Positions 8,697-16,900 of a stretch of 64,000 nucleotides of DNA are shown here, piece after piece; position 1 is the first letter of the stretch; each line of letters starts with the position of its first letter. The notes below the pieces were generated by a model, which saw only the letters and a program-made list of their open reading frames with translations, had not been told where the DNA came from and did not search any database. The stretch lies in the NCBI RefSeq assembly GCF_001677475.2, contig NZ_CP015229.1; one strand, given 5' to 3'. The position numbers were made by a program, and so were the translations under genes. Source of the DNA: Escherichia coli. GTDB taxonomy: Bacteria > Pseudomonadota > Gammaproteobacteria > Enterobacterales > Enterobacteriaceae.

Positions 8697-10787
8697 ATGG
8701 CAGTAAAGATTTCAGGTGTCCTGAAGGACGGAGCGGGTGAGCCTGTCGTAAACTGTGCGATTGAATTGCGAGCCAGAAGAACCAGTCCGACAGTTGTGGT
8801 TAATATTGTGGCAACCTGTCTTACGGGAAGTGATGGCGGGTATACTATTAATGCTGAGCCGGGATTTTATGATGTATTTTTGTCCCGCTCAGGGCATCCT
8901 CCTGTAAAGGCGGGGGAAATTTATGTTGCACCGACAGATGAGCCGGATACGCTGAATGCTTTTCTGGATGCACCAAAGGAGGGTGATTTACGCCCTGAGG
9001 TAATGAAGCGTTTTGAGGAAATGGTAAATACCGTTGTTCGCTTGTCTGAGCAGGTGGTCAGTGACAGGGAGAGAGCAGAAACAGCTGCTGATGATGCAAT
9101 CAATGCAGCAACATCTGCGGCGGTTAGTAAGGATGAGGCAGAAGAGCTAAAAAATCAGACACAGCAGAGCGCCGAAGCTGCAGCCGGAAACGCACAGCAG
9201 ACGGCACAGGATGTGACGACAACCGCAACGGCCCGTGATGATGCGGAACGTTTTGCGGGTGAGGCAGAAAACAGCGCACAGTCATCAGGCACAGCGCGGG
9301 ACGAATCAGTCGATGCCGCCGAACGCGCCCGCCTTTATCATAATGCCGCATCATCAGCAGCGACCAGTTCAGAACTGTCGGCAAATGCGGCGCTGGGGCA
9401 CAAAAACAGTGCCGCCGAATACGCCCGACAGGCTAAAGCCAGCCAGGATGCAGGTGCAGACAATGCGCAGGAAGCGAAACAGTACAGGGATGAGGCGCAG
9501 CAGATAGTTGATGACCTGAATGCAACAAATGCCTCCACGACAGAAAAAGGTCTGGTGCAACTCTGTAGTGATACGGACAACGACAGCGAGGAACTGGCTG
9601 CCACGCCAAAGGCTGTCAAAGACGTCATGGACGAGGCGAAAACAAAAGCGCCACTGGACAGTCCGGCCTTCACCGGCACCCCAACCACCCCAACCCCACC
9701 GGATGATGCCGCCGGTCTGGAAGCAGCGAACGCAGCGTTTGTGCGCAAACTGCTTGCTGCGCTGGTTGGCTCATCGCCGGAAGTTCTGGACACCCTGAAC
9801 GAGCTGGCAGCGGCGCTGGGCAATGACCCGAACTTTGCGACGACAATCACAAACGCGCTGGCAGGCAAACAACCGCTTAATGACGTCTTAACGGCAATCA
9901 GCGCACTGACGCAACGGGCAGATAATCTTCTGTACTTCAATACAGACGGGAATGCCTCACTGTCTCTGCTGTCAGAGAAGGGCCGCGCATTACTGGCGCA
10001 TGACACGGCTGAAGCCATGCGCACGGAGCTTGAGCTGAACGCGGCTGCGACGATGGAACCCCAGAGTGATATCCGTGACCGCACACCGGGCAGGCTGGCC
10101 CTGTCCGGGATGTATGGGTTTGGACAGGCATTCACCAGCACTGACGCTCTGGCGTTTGAGGGGCTGTCTGATTTCGTTGAGTGGTTGAAGAAAGTCACGC
10201 CGGGGCGGTATGCGGTCAGTATTACAGACTCCTCGCAACTGCTTACCGGTACCACGCAATTTAACGGCATTATTGATGTGATGTGGTCACCGTACGCCAA
10301 CAGTGAATCCGACACAGTCCGCAAATTTAAAACCCTGATGTGCTACAACCAGTATTATCAGGGTGAACACTGTATTCACTATATGCAGTACCGGTACAAC
10401 GACAGCGATAACAGCTGGAACATGTCATCGCGGGTAGTTGTATACGACGGAGATTCACTGGCGTACCTGCTGTCCAGGATGGCGGGCTCAGGCTCATATT
10501 ATAAATACCCGGCCGTTGGTGTGCCGATTATGGCGGCATATCAGGGGGAGAGTTTTGGTGCAGATGCGTCTCTGGGGCTCGGTGATATTGTGCCGGGTTC
10601 CCGTCTTGGCCCTCTGGCTATGAGTGCACGGGTTAGCGATACAGGGACATACGCATCCTCACCGCAGGTTGTGATTGGCGGTGCTGGTGAATACAACTTC
10701 CCCGGTCGTTACACGGCGCTTTCGGGGACCCGCATTAGTCACGATACAACGCGTGGCTATATCGGTCTTTTTGTACGCATTGAGTAA
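8697..10787 (+). CDS. stf: Prophage side tail fibre protein (Stf-like)
   Basis: About 696 aa ORF (ATG at 8697; the ORF track starts at GTG 8691); Ala/Gln/Glu-rich fibrous central region; followed by tfa. Confidence 0.8.
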   Translation: MAVKISGVLKDGAGEPVVNCAIELRARRTSPTVVVNIVATCLTGSDGGYTINAEPGFYDVFLSRSGHPPVKAGEIYVAPTDEPDTLNAFLDAPKEGDLRPEVMKRFEEMVNTVVRLSEQVVSDRERAETAADDAINAATSAAVSKDEAEELKNQTQQSAEAAAGNAQQTAQDVTTTATARDDAERFAGEAENSAQSSGTARDESVDAAERARLYHNAASSAATSSELSANAALGHKNSAAEYARQAKASQDAGADNAQEAKQYRDEAQQIVDDLNATNASTTEKGLVQLCSDTDNDSEELAATPKAVKDVMDEAKTKAPLDSPAFTGTPTTPTPPDDAAGLEAANAAFVRKLLAALVGSSPEVLDTLNELAAALGNDPNFATTITNALAGKQPLNDVLTAISALTQRADNLLYFNTDGNASLSLLSEKGRALLAHDTAEAMRTELELNAAATMEPQSDIRDRTPGRLALSGMYGFGQAFTSTDALAFEGLSDFVEWLKKVTPGRYAVSITDSSQLLTGTTQFNGIIDVMWSPYANSESDTVRKFKTLMCYNQYYQGEHCIHYMQYRYNDSDNSWNMSSRVVVYDGDSLAYLLSRMAGSGSYYKYPAVGVPIMAAYQGESFGADASLGLGDIVPGSRLGPLAMSARVSDTGTYASSPQVVIGGAGEYNFPGRYTALSGTRISHDTTRGYIGLFVRIE

Positions 10788-10801
10788 TAAGGAAATAAGA
10801 C

Positions 10802-11380
10802 ATGAAAATCAGAGCGGTGAAAGGCATCAGAAACGCGCATTATCTTGAAAATGGTGCGGTTGACTGCGAGGTGTTATTTGAAGGTGAAACGGAGTTCGTC
10901 CTGTATACCGCCATACAGGATGATATGGCCCCGACAGGCCAGCATGTCTGGCAGGAGCTGCAAAGCGGGAAATGGGGCGAAATCGCCCCGTTCACCGTCA
11001 CGCCGGAACTTATTGCAGCGGCAAAGGATGCCAAAAGGCGGGAAATTGAGGCATGGCGCGACAGTCAGGAAAACGTTGAGTTTATTTTCACGTTTGATGG
11101 CCGTCGTTTTGATGGCGGAAAAACCTCGCAGTCACGCCTTGCCCCCGTGGTTGCAACAGCACAGGCCGGACTGCTTCCGGAGGGATTTTTCTGGACTGAT
11201 GCGGATAATAATAACGTCGTACTGACCAGGGAGAAACTTATTGCGCTGAACGATGCCATGATGGTGGCCATGGTGGCGGAGGGCTTTAAAATCCACGAAC
11301 GTCAGCGGGAGATGAAAGAGGAACTGAGCAGCCTGGAGGATTTACGCTCAATCAGAGCGATGGCGATTAGCAGTAATTAG
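10802..11380 (+). CDS. tfa: Tail fibre assembly protein (Tfa-like chaperone)
   Basis: 192 aa ORF immediately downstream of stf; Tfa-like length and position. Confidence 0.8.
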   Translation: MKIRAVKGIRNAHYLENGAVDCEVLFEGETEFVLYTAIQDDMAPTGQHVWQELQSGKWGEIAPFTVTPELIAAAKDAKRREIEAWRDSQENVEFIFTFDGRRFDGGKTSQSRLAPVVATAQAGLLPEGFFWTDADNNNVVLTREKLIALNDAMMVAMVAEGFKIHERQREMKEELSSLEDLRSIRAMAISSN

Positions 11381-11470
11381 CGGTCAATTCTGGGCTCTTT
11401 GTCTGCTCCTTCACCGTCTGGAATTGTGTGTCAATTAGCCTGGAATTAATCGGGTTCAGATTGTTTTGTT

Positions 11471-11513
11471 GTGGCAAAATTGGGACAAAAGGGGCAAAAA
11501 TGGGGCAAAAAAA
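11471..11513. repeat. Four tandem approximately 10-bp GGGGCAAAA-like units (phased A-tracts)
   Basis: GTGGCAAAAT / TGGGACAAAA / GGGGCAAAAA / TGGGGCAAAAAAA read directly from the sequence, helically phased. Confidence 0.7.
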
Positions 11514-11805
11514 GAGTAGGTTATTGTGGTTTATTGTAGTTGCTGATATGTTTTAATTCATTGAAAATGAAATAAAATACTTATGAGTCAGATGGTTGCA
11601 ATTTTTGTCCTTACTTGTTCAGGTTGTATTGTTCTTTCTTACTAATTTCTTGATTTTGCGACATTTAAAAGCGACTCAATTCGTTATATGGCATCAGAAG
11701 AGTATGCGTCATGCCGGAATGCCCAGCATAAGAAATCTGATATAAAAACAGTGGCGTGTATGGTACGGATTAGAGGGGAAAATGTCAGCACATTTGCGAA
11801 ATGAA

Positions 11806-11836
11806 TCAAAAAGCCCGCAGCAATGTGCGGGCGTTA
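11806..11836 (-). terminator. Rho-independent terminator downstream of uspF
   Basis: On the minus strand: stem GCCCGCA/TGCGGGC followed by TTTTTGATTC, directly after the uspF stop. Confidence 0.6.
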
Positions 11837-11839
11837 GTG

Positions 11840-12355
<516 letters not shown>

Positions 12356-12414
12356 TTAGATCAAAGGAGGAAGAATAAGCAGAAAAAGCCCGCCATAACA
12401 GCGGGCAGGAGGAT

Positions 12415-13548
12415 TTAGAACTGATAAACCAGACCTAAAGCGACAATATCATCGGTAGAGATGCCGTTGGCAGCGTAGAAGCTGTCATCTTCATCCAACA
12501 GGTTGATTTTATAGTCAACATAGGTGGACATGTTTTTATTGAAATAGTAAGTCGCGCCAACATCGGCGTATTTAACCAGATCTTTATCATCAACACCTGC
12601 CGGGTTGTCTGCACCACCGGCAGCGTGCAGGTCACGGCCTTTAGACATCAGGAAAGAGACTGCCGGACGCAGACCAAAATCAAACTGGTACTGTGCAGTA
12701 ACTTCAAAGTTCTGGGTTTTGTTTGCAACAGCATAATCGCTGTCGCCAAACGGGGTCATATTACGCGTTTCTGAATACATGGTTGCCAGGTAAATATTGT
12801 TAGCATCGTATTTTAGCCCAGCAGTCCACGCGTCTGCTTTATCACCACCCGCCGCAGTATGGTTAACCTGGTCATTGGTGCGGTCAGAAGAGGTGTATGC
12901 CGCACCAGCGCTAAAGCCCATGCCTAAATCATATGTTGTGGAAAGACCCCAGCCGTCACCGTTTTCATGGCGAACATCACGTCCGTTGTTGGTGCCTTCC
13001 TGACCATTACTGGCACCTTCGTTGTTACCTTGATACTGCACCGCGAAGTTCAGACCATTTACCAGACCGAAGAAATCAGTATTACGATAAGTCGCGACGC
13101 CATTGGCACGACCAGTCATAAAGTTGTCTGCATTGGTATAAGAGTCACCGCCAAATTCAGGCAGCATATCGGTCCAGCCTTCGATGTCGTACATTACGCC
13201 ATAATTACGTCCGTAATCGAAAGAACCGTAATCTGCAAATTTCAATCCGGCAAATGCCAGACGGGTCCATGACTGGTTTTTTGAGGATTCAGTGTTGTTT
13301 GCCTGAATATTGTATTCCCATTGACCGTAGCCAGTGAGTTGATCGTTAATTTGGGTTTCGCCTTTAAAACCCAGACGCGCATAGCTCTGGTCGCCATCTT
13401 TCGCTGAATTATCAGAAAAATAATGCAGGCCATCAACTTTGCCATACAGATCTAATTTGTTGCCGTCTTTATTATAAACTTCGGCTGCATGTGCAGCACC
13501 TGCGGCGAGCAGGGCAGGAATTAAAAGTGCCAGTACTTTGCTTTTCAT
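12415..13548 (-). CDS. ompN: Outer membrane porin OmpN (OmpC/OmpF family)
   Basis: 377 aa porin with signal peptide and C-terminal ...LVYQF; located between uspF and micC/ydbK as in K-12. Confidence 0.85.
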
Positions 13549-13775
13549 TGAATAAATCCTTTAGTTATTTTATTTGCCTTTTATCCCCATTTCGGGGAGT
13601 GAAAACATCCTAAAGGAGAAGTTCAGTTAGCCGATAAATATCATTTGTTACGCCTTAAGTAAAACCTTAATCAAATAATTCCTCTGAAATGACAATAAGT
13701 CTTGTGAATGTATCGAAGATAATACATACAAAATAAAAATTATACTTTTAATTTGCTATACGTTATTCTGCGCGG

Positions 13776-13884
13776 GTTATATGCCTTTATTGTCACAGAT
13801 TTTATTTTCTGTTGGGCCATTGCATTGCCACTGATTTTCCAACATATAAAAAGACAAGCCCGAACAGTCGTCCGGGCTTTTTTT
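13776..13884 (+). ncRNA. micC: MicC small regulatory RNA (Hfq-dependent, represses ompC)
   Basis: Sequence GTTATATGCCTTTATTGTCACAGATTTTATTTTCTGTTGGGCC...CCCGAACAGTCGTCCGGGCTTTTTTT matches recalled MicC including the terminator hairpin; ompN-ydbK intergenic position. Confidence 0.9.
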
Positions 13885-13913
13885 TAGAATTGGATAATCC
13901 TTATCCAGAGCAT

Positions 13914-16900
13914 TTAATCGGTGTTGCTTTTTTCCGCTTTTCCGGCCATTTGTGCCAGGAAGTCATAGCGTTTTTGCAAATCAGCTGCGGCATCTTTCCA
14001 TAACTGTTCTGCCACTTCTGGCTGCTGCGAATTCAGACGACGGAAACGCTGCTCGTGAAGTAACGTTTCTTCCAGTGCTTCTGACGGCGGGCGTGAATCC
14101 AGCGCCAGCGGCAGTTTGCCTTCATCGGCACGACGCGGATCAAAGCGATATAGCGGCCAGAAGCCGGTAGCAGTGAGTTGGCGCATCTGGTCGTGACTGA
14201 GTGCCAGATCGTAACCATGCTCTTCACACGGGCTATAAGCGATGATCAGCGATGGCCCCGGATACGCTTCCGCTTCCTGAATCGCTTTCACCGTCTGGTT
14301 GAGCTGCGCGCCGAGAGAAATCTGCGCCACATAAACATGACCGTACATCATCATACTGACGCCAAGATCTTTACGCGCTTTACGTTTGCCGTGCTCGCCG
14401 AACTTAGTTACTGCACCCAGCGGTGTCGCTTTCGACGCCTGACCACCGGTGTTGGAATAGCATTGCGTATCCAGCACCAGAATGTTGATGTTTTCCGTCA
14501 AACTCAATACATGATCCAGACCGCCAAAGCCGATATCGTAAGCCCAGCCATCACCACCAATCAGCCAGATTGATTTTTCCACCAGTGCATCTGCGTCACG
14601 TAGCAGTTCATGTGCTTCGGCAACATCGTTGAGTTGCTGGCGTAAAGCTGCAACCTGCTCACGACGAACCTCTGGCGTAGCGTCTGATTTCAACGCCGTC
14701 AGTAATTCCGTCGGGATTTTATCGGCAAATTGATCCAGCAGACGAAGCACGCGGACACGGTGTTGATCGACCGTCAGGCGGAAACCAAGGCCAAATTCGG
14801 CGTTATCTTCAAACAGCGAGTTCGCCCATGCCGGCCCACGACCGTTGGCATCGGTGGTATACGGTGTAGAGGGCAGGTTACCGCCATAAATTGAAGAACA
14901 GCCGGTGGCGTTAGCGATCAACATCCGGTCGCCATAGAGCTGAGTCAGCAATTTAATATACGGCGTCTCGCCACAACCGGAGCAAGCACCTGAATATTCA
15001 AACAGCGGTGTAATCAGCTGCGATGTACGAATATCAATACGTTCCAGTTTGCTACGGTCGATTTCTGGCAGGTTGAGGAAGAAATCGTAATTGATTTTCT
15101 CTTCTTCGACATGTTCCAGGCGCGACATCATATTGATGGCTTTAATCTCTGGATTCTGACGGTCTTTCGCCGGGCAAACTTCGACGCACAGGTTACAACC
15201 GGTGCAATCTTCCGGAGCCACCTGCAAGACATATTTCTGCCCGCGCATATCACGCGATTTCACATCCAGCGAATGCAGGCTGGCAGGGGCGTTTTCCATC
15301 GCTTCAGGCGGTACCACTTTTGCGCGAATAGCTGAGTGTGGGCAAGCGGCGACGCAGTGGTTACATTGGGTACAGAGTTCCTCTTTCCAGATGGGGATCT
15401 CTTCGGCGATATTGCGTTTTTCCCAGCGCGTGGTGCCCATCGGCCAGGTGCCGTCTGGCGGCAGCGCCGAAACGGGGAGGGCATCACCAAGCCCGGCGAG
15501 CATCGCAGCGGTTACGGTTTTCACGAAATCAGGGGCGGCATCGGAAACCACTGGCGGTCGATTGGCGCTGTGCGGATTTACCGGTTGCAACGGAACTTCT
15601 TCTACGGATTCACGCGCCAGCGCCAGAGCCTGCCAGTTGCGCTCCACCAGATCCTGACCTTTGCTACTGTAACTTTTGGCAATCGCACCCTGCAATTCTG
15701 CGAGGGCGCTATCGCCAGGCAGAATTTGCGTCAGATGGAAAAAAGCCATCTGCATGACGGTATTAATACGGGCCGCCAGGCCACATTCGCGGGCGATTTT
15801 CGCTGCGTTAATCACATAGAAGCGCGCTTTTTTCTGGTTTAGCACGGCCTGAACTTCCTGCGGCAAGCGCGACCACACTTCATCTGCGCTGTACGGCGTG
15901 TTGAGCAGGAAAATGCCGCCAGGTTTTAAACGCTCAGCCATCTGATATTTATCGATAAACTGCAACTGGTGGCAGCCAACAAAATCAGCCTGGGAAATGA
16001 GATAAGCGGAACGAATCGGCTGTTCGCTCACGCGAAGGTGAGAAACCGTCAGGCCGCCCGCCTTTTTGGAGTCGTAAACAAAATAGCCCTGTGCGTACCA
16101 CGGCGTGGAATTACCGATAATCTTGATATTGTTTTTGGTCGCGGAAACGCTGCCATCACTACCAAGGCCATAAAACAAGGCTTCCAGTTTCGCCGAGTTT
16201 GGCAGGGTGTTTTCCGGCAACGGCAGTGACAGATTGGTCACATCATCGTAAATACCAACCGTAAAGCGCGCTTTCGGTTTAGCCGCGTTGAGCTCGGCAA
16301 ATACCGCCAGTACACAGTCCGGGCCAAATTCTTTGGATGAAAGACCATAGCGCCCACCAATGACACGGGGCAGGATTTCACGCTCGCCATTATTAAAAGC
16401 TTCTGCCAGTGCGGTCATCACATCCAGATAGAGCGGTTCTGCCTGGGCACCAGGTTCTTTGGTTCTGTCCAGTACCGCCACGCTGCGTACGGATCCCGGC
16501 AGAGCTTGTAGCAAGTGTTTGGCGGAGAAGGGACGGTACAGGCGAACTTTCAGCACGCCAACTTTTTCGCCACGGGTTAGCAATTCATCAACCACTTCTT
16601 CACAGGTGCCAATGGCAGAGCCCATCAGGATAATCACCCGTTCCGCTTGCGGATGCCCGTAATATTCAAACGGCTGATACTGACGACCTGTCGCGGCAGA
16701 GAAATCATTCATCGCCTGTTCAACATGGTCATAGACCGCGTTGTACCATGGGTTGGTGGCTTCGCGAGACTGGAAATAAGTGTCAGGATTGGCGGACGTA
16801 CCGCGGATCACCGGATGTTCCGGGTTGAGTGCCCGGGCGCGATGAGCATCAATTTCGGCCTGCGGCATGAGATCAAGAATCGTGTCATCGGCCAGCGGGA

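Follow-up and report, generated by a model that had tools for sequence, protein, structure and literature searches.

Phage lambda provides the paradigm for integration by tyrosine integrases. Its heterobivalent integrase binds the arm-type sites through an N-terminal domain, which we take to be PF09003 (as opposed to PF12167 in IntR, the integrase of the Rac prophage), and the core through its other domains. In the generally known layout of lambda attP, with which we compare our locus below, an arm motif distinct from the core is repeated on both arms (P1, P2 and P′1–P′3) with a tandem spacing of ~10–11 bp in the int-proximal P′ arm, and AT-rich spacer DNA with IHF-like sites lies between the arm sites and the core. 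For excision, lambda Xis binds the X1-X1.5-X2 repeats, a phased tandem of direct repeats in the P arm, and bends attR. As a rule, excisionases have their sites on one arm only.

Closer to the present locus is the Rac prophage of E. coli K-12. Earlier work on Rac has described its junction and core, the ttcC remnant, IntR and XisR, along with attL and attR in ttcA (Liu et al. 2015, PMC4632033). Integrases with a PF12167 domain form the arm-binding 'IntBPP-1' subgroup, to which the integrases of Stx2a phages and of Gifsy-2 also belong (Smyshlyaev et al. 2021, PMC8138268). We have analysed one end of a Rac-type prophage contained in a 64-kb stretch of E. coli DNA (64,000 nucleotides, the window in what follows). 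The segment is an ordinary and expected part of a phage integration site with the textbook architecture of a lambda-type system.

Positions 11381–11840 are the attR (P-O-B′) of a Rac-type lambdoid prophage inserted in the 5′ end of ttcA, since chromosomal homology stops at the core, the core is found at both prophage ends as well as at the empty site, and the ttcC remnant is the native start of ttcA. We compared this 460-bp segment by megablast with 5426 complete E. coli genomes. Prophage-free genomes, in which ttcA lies directly beside uspF, match 11615–11840 only (query 235–460), K-12-like genomes with Rac match from about 11486 onward, and the full 460 bp is matched in only 23 genomes. Left of the core the DNA is specific to the phage and missing in prophage-free strains; right of it, the DNA is chromosomal. 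The first-pass annotation, made from the sequence of the window, had supposed that the segment is a prophage/chromosome junction which may hold the attR core, and had proposed a search for a direct repeat and a comparison with prophage-free strains as checks. Both suppositions proved right: homology to these strains breaks at 11615, the repeats being part of the stretch 11381–11614 that is absent there, and the direct-repeat search found the 26-bp core at attL in OkiPb01695 and K-12. With only 11615–11840 matched, the segment is not present unchanged in strains without the prophage. The int, xis and attL of this prophage are located outside the window and were taken from a genome with a 98.7% identical attR.

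The phage DNA of the P arm extends to 11614 and is followed by the core, the ttcC remnant, the orphaned ttcA upstream region and the uspF terminator (Table 1). The core is unique within the window and constitutes the left edge of homology to prophage-free strains; allowing at most one mismatch, it is present at attL and attR of both OkiPb01695 and K-12 and at the empty site of KSC207. It falls within codons about 9–17 of ttcA, and strand exchange takes place inside its 26 bp. This anatomy of the site places the prophage boundary to the base and explains the ttcC pseudogene, whose translation is identical to the N-terminus of the intact ttcA in an empty-site strain. The ttcA gene of lysogens has a phage-supplied replacement N-terminus beginning MQENQQITKK, the four-residue change that Liu et al. 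2015 (PMC4632033) reported for Rac. The 17-codon 5′ remnant of ttcA (minus strand, 11664..11611) is the sole real coding remnant between 11381 and 11840, and the earlier view that this interval contains no credible ORF was nearly right with this one exception.

To the right of uspF follow ompN, MicC and nifJ/ydbK, and because of this gene order the locus can be assigned to the ttcA-uspF-ompN region of E. coli. The MicC sRNA gene, which is expected in this region, lies at 13773–13893 between ompN and nifJ (Rfam RF00121, 125 bits); an Rfam scan of 10500–14000 at a permissive threshold returned MicC alone, further right, and no match in the segment. A promoter-like match is predicted at 11788..11760 in the ttcA upstream region on the basis of consensus only. 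On the phage side, the identical neighbour gene is annotated as DUF4376 in RefSeq, and a weak hairpin that matches a terminator-like pattern occurs at 11437–11456 within the variable spacer. Two adjacent minus-strand ORFs of 499 aa and 251 aa (543–2794) are situated inside the plus-strand tail-gene region and may represent an inserted mobile element.

Table 1. Features of the attR segment and its immediate neighbours (positions in the window)
Feature	Position	Strand	Basis or remark
Last prophage gene, tail-fibre family (tfa in the first-pass annotation)	10802..11380	+	PHROG 1141 'tail fiber protein', E=3e-82
Phage-specific spacer, variable among Rac-type phages	11381..11470		Unrelated sequence left of the array at other attR sites
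GGGGCAAAA-type array, 4 units	11471..11513	+	Proposed P-arm arm-type IntR binding sites; predicted intrinsically curved
Second tandem repeat, period 10, GTAGTTTATT x2.6	11516..11541	+	Tandem Repeats Finder
IHF-consensus-like candidate site, 1 mismatch	11554-11566	-	AT-rich P-arm spacer, 11554..11583
IHF-consensus-like candidate site, 1 mismatch	11571-11583	+	AT-rich P-arm spacer, 11554..11583
ttcC remnant, native ttcA first 17 codons severed by the insertion	11611..11664	-	Translation MSQNQEISKKEQYNLNK, then stop
attR core, 26 bp, TTGTTCAGGTTGTATTGTTCTTTCTT	11615..11640	+	Common to attL, attR and empty attB in ttcA
Perfect IHF consensus AATCAAGAAATTA, candidate site	11643..11655	-	Bacterial arm, just right of the core
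Orphaned native ttcA upstream region	11665..11812	-	Chromosomal, in nearly all E. coli genomes
uspF intrinsic terminator hairpin	11813..11832	-	7-bp stem, 6 GC pairs, then T-run
uspF, first chromosomal gene	11840..12274	-	RefSeq annotation of a 98.7% identical locus; ORF

The repeat array belongs to the phage DNA and marks the outer end of the P arm, 102–144 bp left of the core. Its units start at 11471 (GTGGCAAAA), 11482 (GGGACAAAA), 11491 (GGGGCAAAA) and 11502 (GGGGCAAAA(AAA)), are 9–11 bp long and follow each other with start-to-start spacings of 11, 9 and 11 bp, on average 10.3 bp or approximately one helical turn. Tandem Repeats Finder calls the array with a period of 11 (3.7 copies) and also with a period of 20. 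The description from which we started, four tandem units of ~10 bp made of G-runs followed by A-tracts in helical phase, as is typical of intrinsically bent DNA, with an AT-rich stretch after them, is accurate as to position and phasing, and the GC content drops to 27–30% over roughly 180 bp right of the array (about 11510–11690). The clustering is not explained by chance: at least four hits within 45 bp on one strand were seen in none of 300 simulated 64-kb sequences (first-order Markov, a hit having at most one mismatch), the largest cluster being three, which occurred once, and GGGGCA-N4-6-GGGGCA is found a single time in the window, at the array, and in none of 100 shuffles. We also considered the repeats as a candidate att core or crossover site and rejected them, the array being absent from empty sites and the core lying 102 bp further right.

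The bending was addressed with our own implementation of the Bolshoy/Trifonov wedge model, which yields a prediction only. The array centre at 11496 is predicted to be the interior point of highest curvature in the entire window, with 33.8 degrees per 30 bp compared to a background median of 8.1 and a 99th percentile of 23.4. In agreement with the earlier suggestion, the array would qualify as phased A-tract bent DNA by this model, with A-tracts of at least 4 bp at about the helical period and a curvature above background.

We then compared eleven Rac-type attR/attP sequences with unrelated upstream neighbours: the tail-fibre gene as in the window, the pinR/ydfK/IS5 region in K-12, sitA, or a DUF1076 gene. 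Whatever the upstream DNA, homology among Rac-type attR sites starts exactly at the array. The array is present in every Rac-type attR/attP examined with its last unit fixed at −113/−112 from the core start, and it varies at the distal side only, between 3 and 6 units depending on the strain and in exact 11-bp steps, while the core-proximal end remains constant. Roughly 1840 E. coli genomes have this P arm. Counting degenerate units, there are four in the window, five in K-12 and in O157 strain 8368, six in SW071619, and four in 2015C-3163, three of which are within one mismatch of GGGGCAAA. The K-12 Rac attR resembles the one described here in most respects: it has the same insertion site in ttcA, an identical 26-bp core, the same ttcC remnant, uspF-ompN-MicC-nifJ downstream and a P arm that is homologous from the array to the core; moreover, the K-12 IntR and XisR are identical to those of a close relative of the present prophage. 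It differs by its five units, one 11-bp unit more than here, and by the pinR/ydfK/IS5 DNA that takes the place of the tail-fibre module left of the array.

A copy number that differs between strains by whole units could also be the mark of a slippage-prone microsatellite with no function, and in M160133 and SW071619 short 'hypothetical protein' ORFs have been annotated over the array by PGAP (L090 349–522, L092 377–502), as if the repeats belonged to a small ORF (11428–11556 in the window, 42 aa). We regard either possibility as highly improbable. Length variants in steps of 11 bp break any reading frame, and for this reason a coding ORF across the array was rejected and the PGAP ORFs present in some genomes are probably spurious. 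Slippage is a local process that cannot account for the matching pair on the P′ arm, nor would a mere microsatellite be expected to keep its position and orientation across att DNA that is only ~70% identical and between phages with integrases that are 42–44% identical, as detailed below.

The same motif is indeed found on the other side of the core. At attL, a tandem pair, ATGGGGCAAAT TGGGGGCAAAC, occupies +74 and +85 relative to the core and is oriented like the attR array; it is flanked by the stop codon of intR and the ttcA start codon that the phage supplies. A pair at +74/+85 occurs in K-12, OkiPb01695, E275a and phage PHB10. Both arms carry a repeated motif that is unrelated to the core, 3–6 units on P and two on P′, all in one orientation, and in the 50-kb prophage locus of OkiPb01695 (L004) GGGGCA-N4-6-GGGGCA is found on both att arms and nowhere else. 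A scan of IMG/VR with IntR gave 80 near-identical integrases, most of them on sequences cut at the int stop, which left a small number of intact P′ arms and a single intact attP (L040). In lysogens, the P′ pair is 25–45 bp upstream of the phage-supplied ttcA start (L004 9682–9734, L005 2464–2516) and ttcA is co-oriented with xisR-intR. In view of this position and the shared orientation, ttcA may owe its expression to transcription reading through from int, or its expression may be influenced by bound Int or IHF.

Phage PHB10, a sequenced virion genome with an intact attP, has an integrase 69% identical to that of Rac and att DNA that is about 70% identical. Its P arm contains three units and a degenerate fourth between −154 and about −112, then an AT-rich spacer and the core, while the two P′ units at +74 and +85 are placed immediately before the int stop. 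As more distant relatives we used five phages with an intact attP, together with 933W, all with integrases 42–44% identical to IntR and with other insertion sites. In FSL SP-016, AsXd-1 (Aeromonas), RCIP0098 (Klebsiella) and CobraSix (Enterobacter) a GGGGCA-N5-GGGGCA pair abuts the 3′ end of int and a second GGGGCA pair follows about 200 bp beyond in the same orientation, so that four of the five have pairs on both arms; in Tritos the P′ pair is found beside int, but the far side offers only one GGGGCA. 933W carries TTGGGGCA units, six of them on its P arm and another two on P′ (L089 561–647, L088 70–90). The same geometry, with TGGGAACA pairs on both arms, is seen for phiCTX, whose integrase is 31% identical. 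Motif and position are thereby conserved among diverged phages with related integrases, from PHB10 to 933W and four of the five intact attP sites.

The attP sites of IntBPP-1 phages (933W, other Stx phages, Gifsy-2-like phages) share with the Rac type the PF12167 domain and GGGGCA motifs on both arms about 200 bp apart. They differ by their cores and insertion genes and, in four of the five intact sites, by having only one pair per arm without A-tract spacers; 933W is different again with three pairs in its P arm. GGGGCA pairs with an 11-bp period on both arms look like a subgroup-wide arm-site consensus for PF12167 integrases, judging from these comparisons. Within the unit it is the G-rich GGGGCA that does not vary, and relatives retain the GGGGCA pairs without A-tracts. 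Conservation of GGGGCA but not of the A-tract points to a sequence-specific recognition by the arm-binding domain of the integrase and not to bent DNA itself.

This conservation is relevant to the idea that the array is bent A-tract DNA which recruits H-NS or Fis and thereby silences or modulates the prophage end. The highest predicted curvature of the 64-kb window in AT-rich surroundings would be in line with it, as would the report that H-NS controls Rac excision (PMC4632033). However, GGGGCA is what stays constant in the unit, relatives do without A-tracts, and on either arm the motif keeps its distance to the core. In the same study the effects of H-NS and RpoS on excision were tied to xisR expression and not to attR (PMC4632033). 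We therefore think that recruitment of H-NS or Fis is an improbable primary role for the array, although a contribution of this kind could exist alongside Int binding and be additive to it. The roles in replication, packaging or silencing that had been raised for the repeats in the first-pass annotation received no support.

IntR, as encoded in the genome with the 98.7% identical attR, possesses a separate N-terminal arm-DNA-binding domain, Pfam Arm-DNA-bind_2 (PF12167, formerly DUF3596), which covers residues 5–69 (E=4e-26) and precedes the catalytic domain. We favour the explanation that the four units are arm-type binding sites for this domain and consider it likely to be correct. From the distribution of the motif we infer that IntR would bind the units and would need them for integration and excision. 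The N-domain is no better conserved than the rest of the protein, with about 42% invariant positions over residues 1–69 compared to 44% overall identity to the 933W Int. A PDB sequence search yielded no solved relative covering the arm-binding domain, the Tn1549 Int matching in its catalytic and core-binding regions only (E about 1e-7), and a literature search returned neither direct binding or mutational data for IntR on the units nor any paper in which the arm-type sites of Rac, of 933W or of the PF12167 subgroup are mapped. The assignment of the arm sites and the GGGGCA pair consensus across the subgroup may hence be undescribed so far. Our protein–DNA assignments draw on sequence comparison and on two published experiments with K-12 Rac.

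In the arrangement we propose, the N-domain of IntR would hold the GGGGCA units in the P and P′ arms while each protomer would engage a core half-site through its core-binding and catalytic domains. The AT-rich spacer of roughly 100 bp with its IHF-like sites would fold the P arm back onto the core, and the matching P′ pair beside intR would do likewise from the other side. With a period of 11 bp, successive units would face the same side of the helix, and the intrinsic curvature that the A-tract spacers add in the Rac lineage should aid wrapping. Such an organization has much in common with lambda attP: both arms repeat a motif unrelated to the core, tandem copies follow each other at ~10–11 bp in the P′ arm next to int, AT-rich DNA carrying IHF-like sites separates the core from the arm sites, and the integrase has a separate domain for binding the arms. 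It is unlike lambda in that the motif is GGGGCA, all units point in one direction and the P arm has a contiguous array of 3–6 units instead of two separated sites; the arm sites proposed here are moreover deduced from sequence. Since 4–6 units on the P arm exceed the two found in relatives with 42–44% identical integrases, some of the units could serve another protein.

An alternative reading involves XisR, the DUF1233 excisionase and recombination directionality factor. The array might be a platform on which XisR polymerises along the phased repeats and bends attR for excision. The repeats are tandem, in phase and situated in the P arm, which is the arm carried by attR, it is on the P arm only that they have expanded to 3–6 units, and the attR fragment to which XisR binds contains the array (PMC4632033). 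This resembles the phased direct repeats X1-X1.5-X2 of lambda, but differs from them in two respects. The motif is not limited to one arm, as it recurs as the pair in the P′ arm next to int, and symmetric pairs on both arms are also present in the four relatives with integrases 42–44% identical to IntR. In addition, the array-bearing DNA was not bound by XisR when tested apart from the core. In the single published EMSA, XisR shifted AttR, a fragment of 294 bp, but left AttM, which measures 291 bp, unshifted (Liu et al. 2015, PMC4632033). We mapped the primers on K-12 and found that AttM stops exactly at the left core edge, and so includes the entire array and the spacer, while AttR begins just left of the array and reaches about 100 bp past the core. 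Because AttM contains the whole array and is not shifted, the array alone is not a XisR site, and the experiment implies that XisR requires DNA located at the core edge or to its right. The array is also outermost in the P arm and does not lie between arm sites and core. A XisR platform thus appears unlikely to us. Covariation of motif and protein cannot separate Int from Xis, since the Xis proteins of the compared phages are themselves distant homologues (DUF1233-like, 26–32% identical).

A second tandem repeat directly follows the array at 11516–11541; all seven variants that we aligned, PHB10 among them, preserve its GT.G periodicity. This repeat, too, is contained in the AttM fragment that XisR does not shift.

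The proposed folding of the P arm raises the question of IHF. Four of the 66 matches to the IHF pattern in the window cluster in the att region, within about 130 bp, and the equivalent spacer of PHB10 has two perfect WATCAANNNNTTR matches to the IHF consensus. IHF footprinting-by-sequencing (GeF-seq) in K-12 noted a consensus at ttcC/attR, which corresponds to 11643–11655 in the window, but gave no IHF peak there; a footprint was observed at a consensus beside the attL core of K-12 Rac (Kasho et al. 2021, PMC8407004). We therefore keep the IHF sites of the segment as candidates only, given that the region is AT-rich and the published data show no IHF at attR. The anticipated binding of nucleoid proteins to the segment is, as far as IHF is concerned, not borne out by this K-12 experiment (PMC8407004).

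What is mildly unusual about the Rac-type site is that the P-arm pair is expanded to a contiguous array, strongly curved according to the wedge model, with a polymorphic number of units. It is tempting to speculate that the Rac lineage has turned the pair into an arm that bends by itself and takes the place of an accessory bending protein, that the length of the curved A-tract array tunes excision and that H-NS may have a control point there, but we would give this scenario little credence at present. Of more immediate use, the GGGGCA pairs with their 11-bp period on both arms provide a testable arm-site consensus for the widespread subgroup of integrases found in Rac, Stx-converting and Gifsy-2-like phages, which could help to delimit attP, attL and attR in prophage annotation and to design minimal att sites.

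Three records encountered during the comparison deserve mention. In E. coli E275a (NZ_CP035865.1), a tail-fibre gene, the P arm with the array, the core, the P′ pair and intR are contiguous, and this attP-like junction implies two tandem Rac-type prophages at ttcA. E. coli A3 (NZ_CP028771.1) has a degraded Rac remnant that consists of ttcA, a truncated integrase and fragments, followed by uspF; the P arm and core of attR are deleted and the remnant can accordingly no longer excise. Finally, ON032529.1, deposited as the 'complete phage genome' of 'Salmonella phage SPF_0923', carries sitABC, a Rac-type attR, uspF, ompN and a partial pyruvate-flavodoxin oxidoreductase gene, and evidently includes host chromosome past the prophage end.
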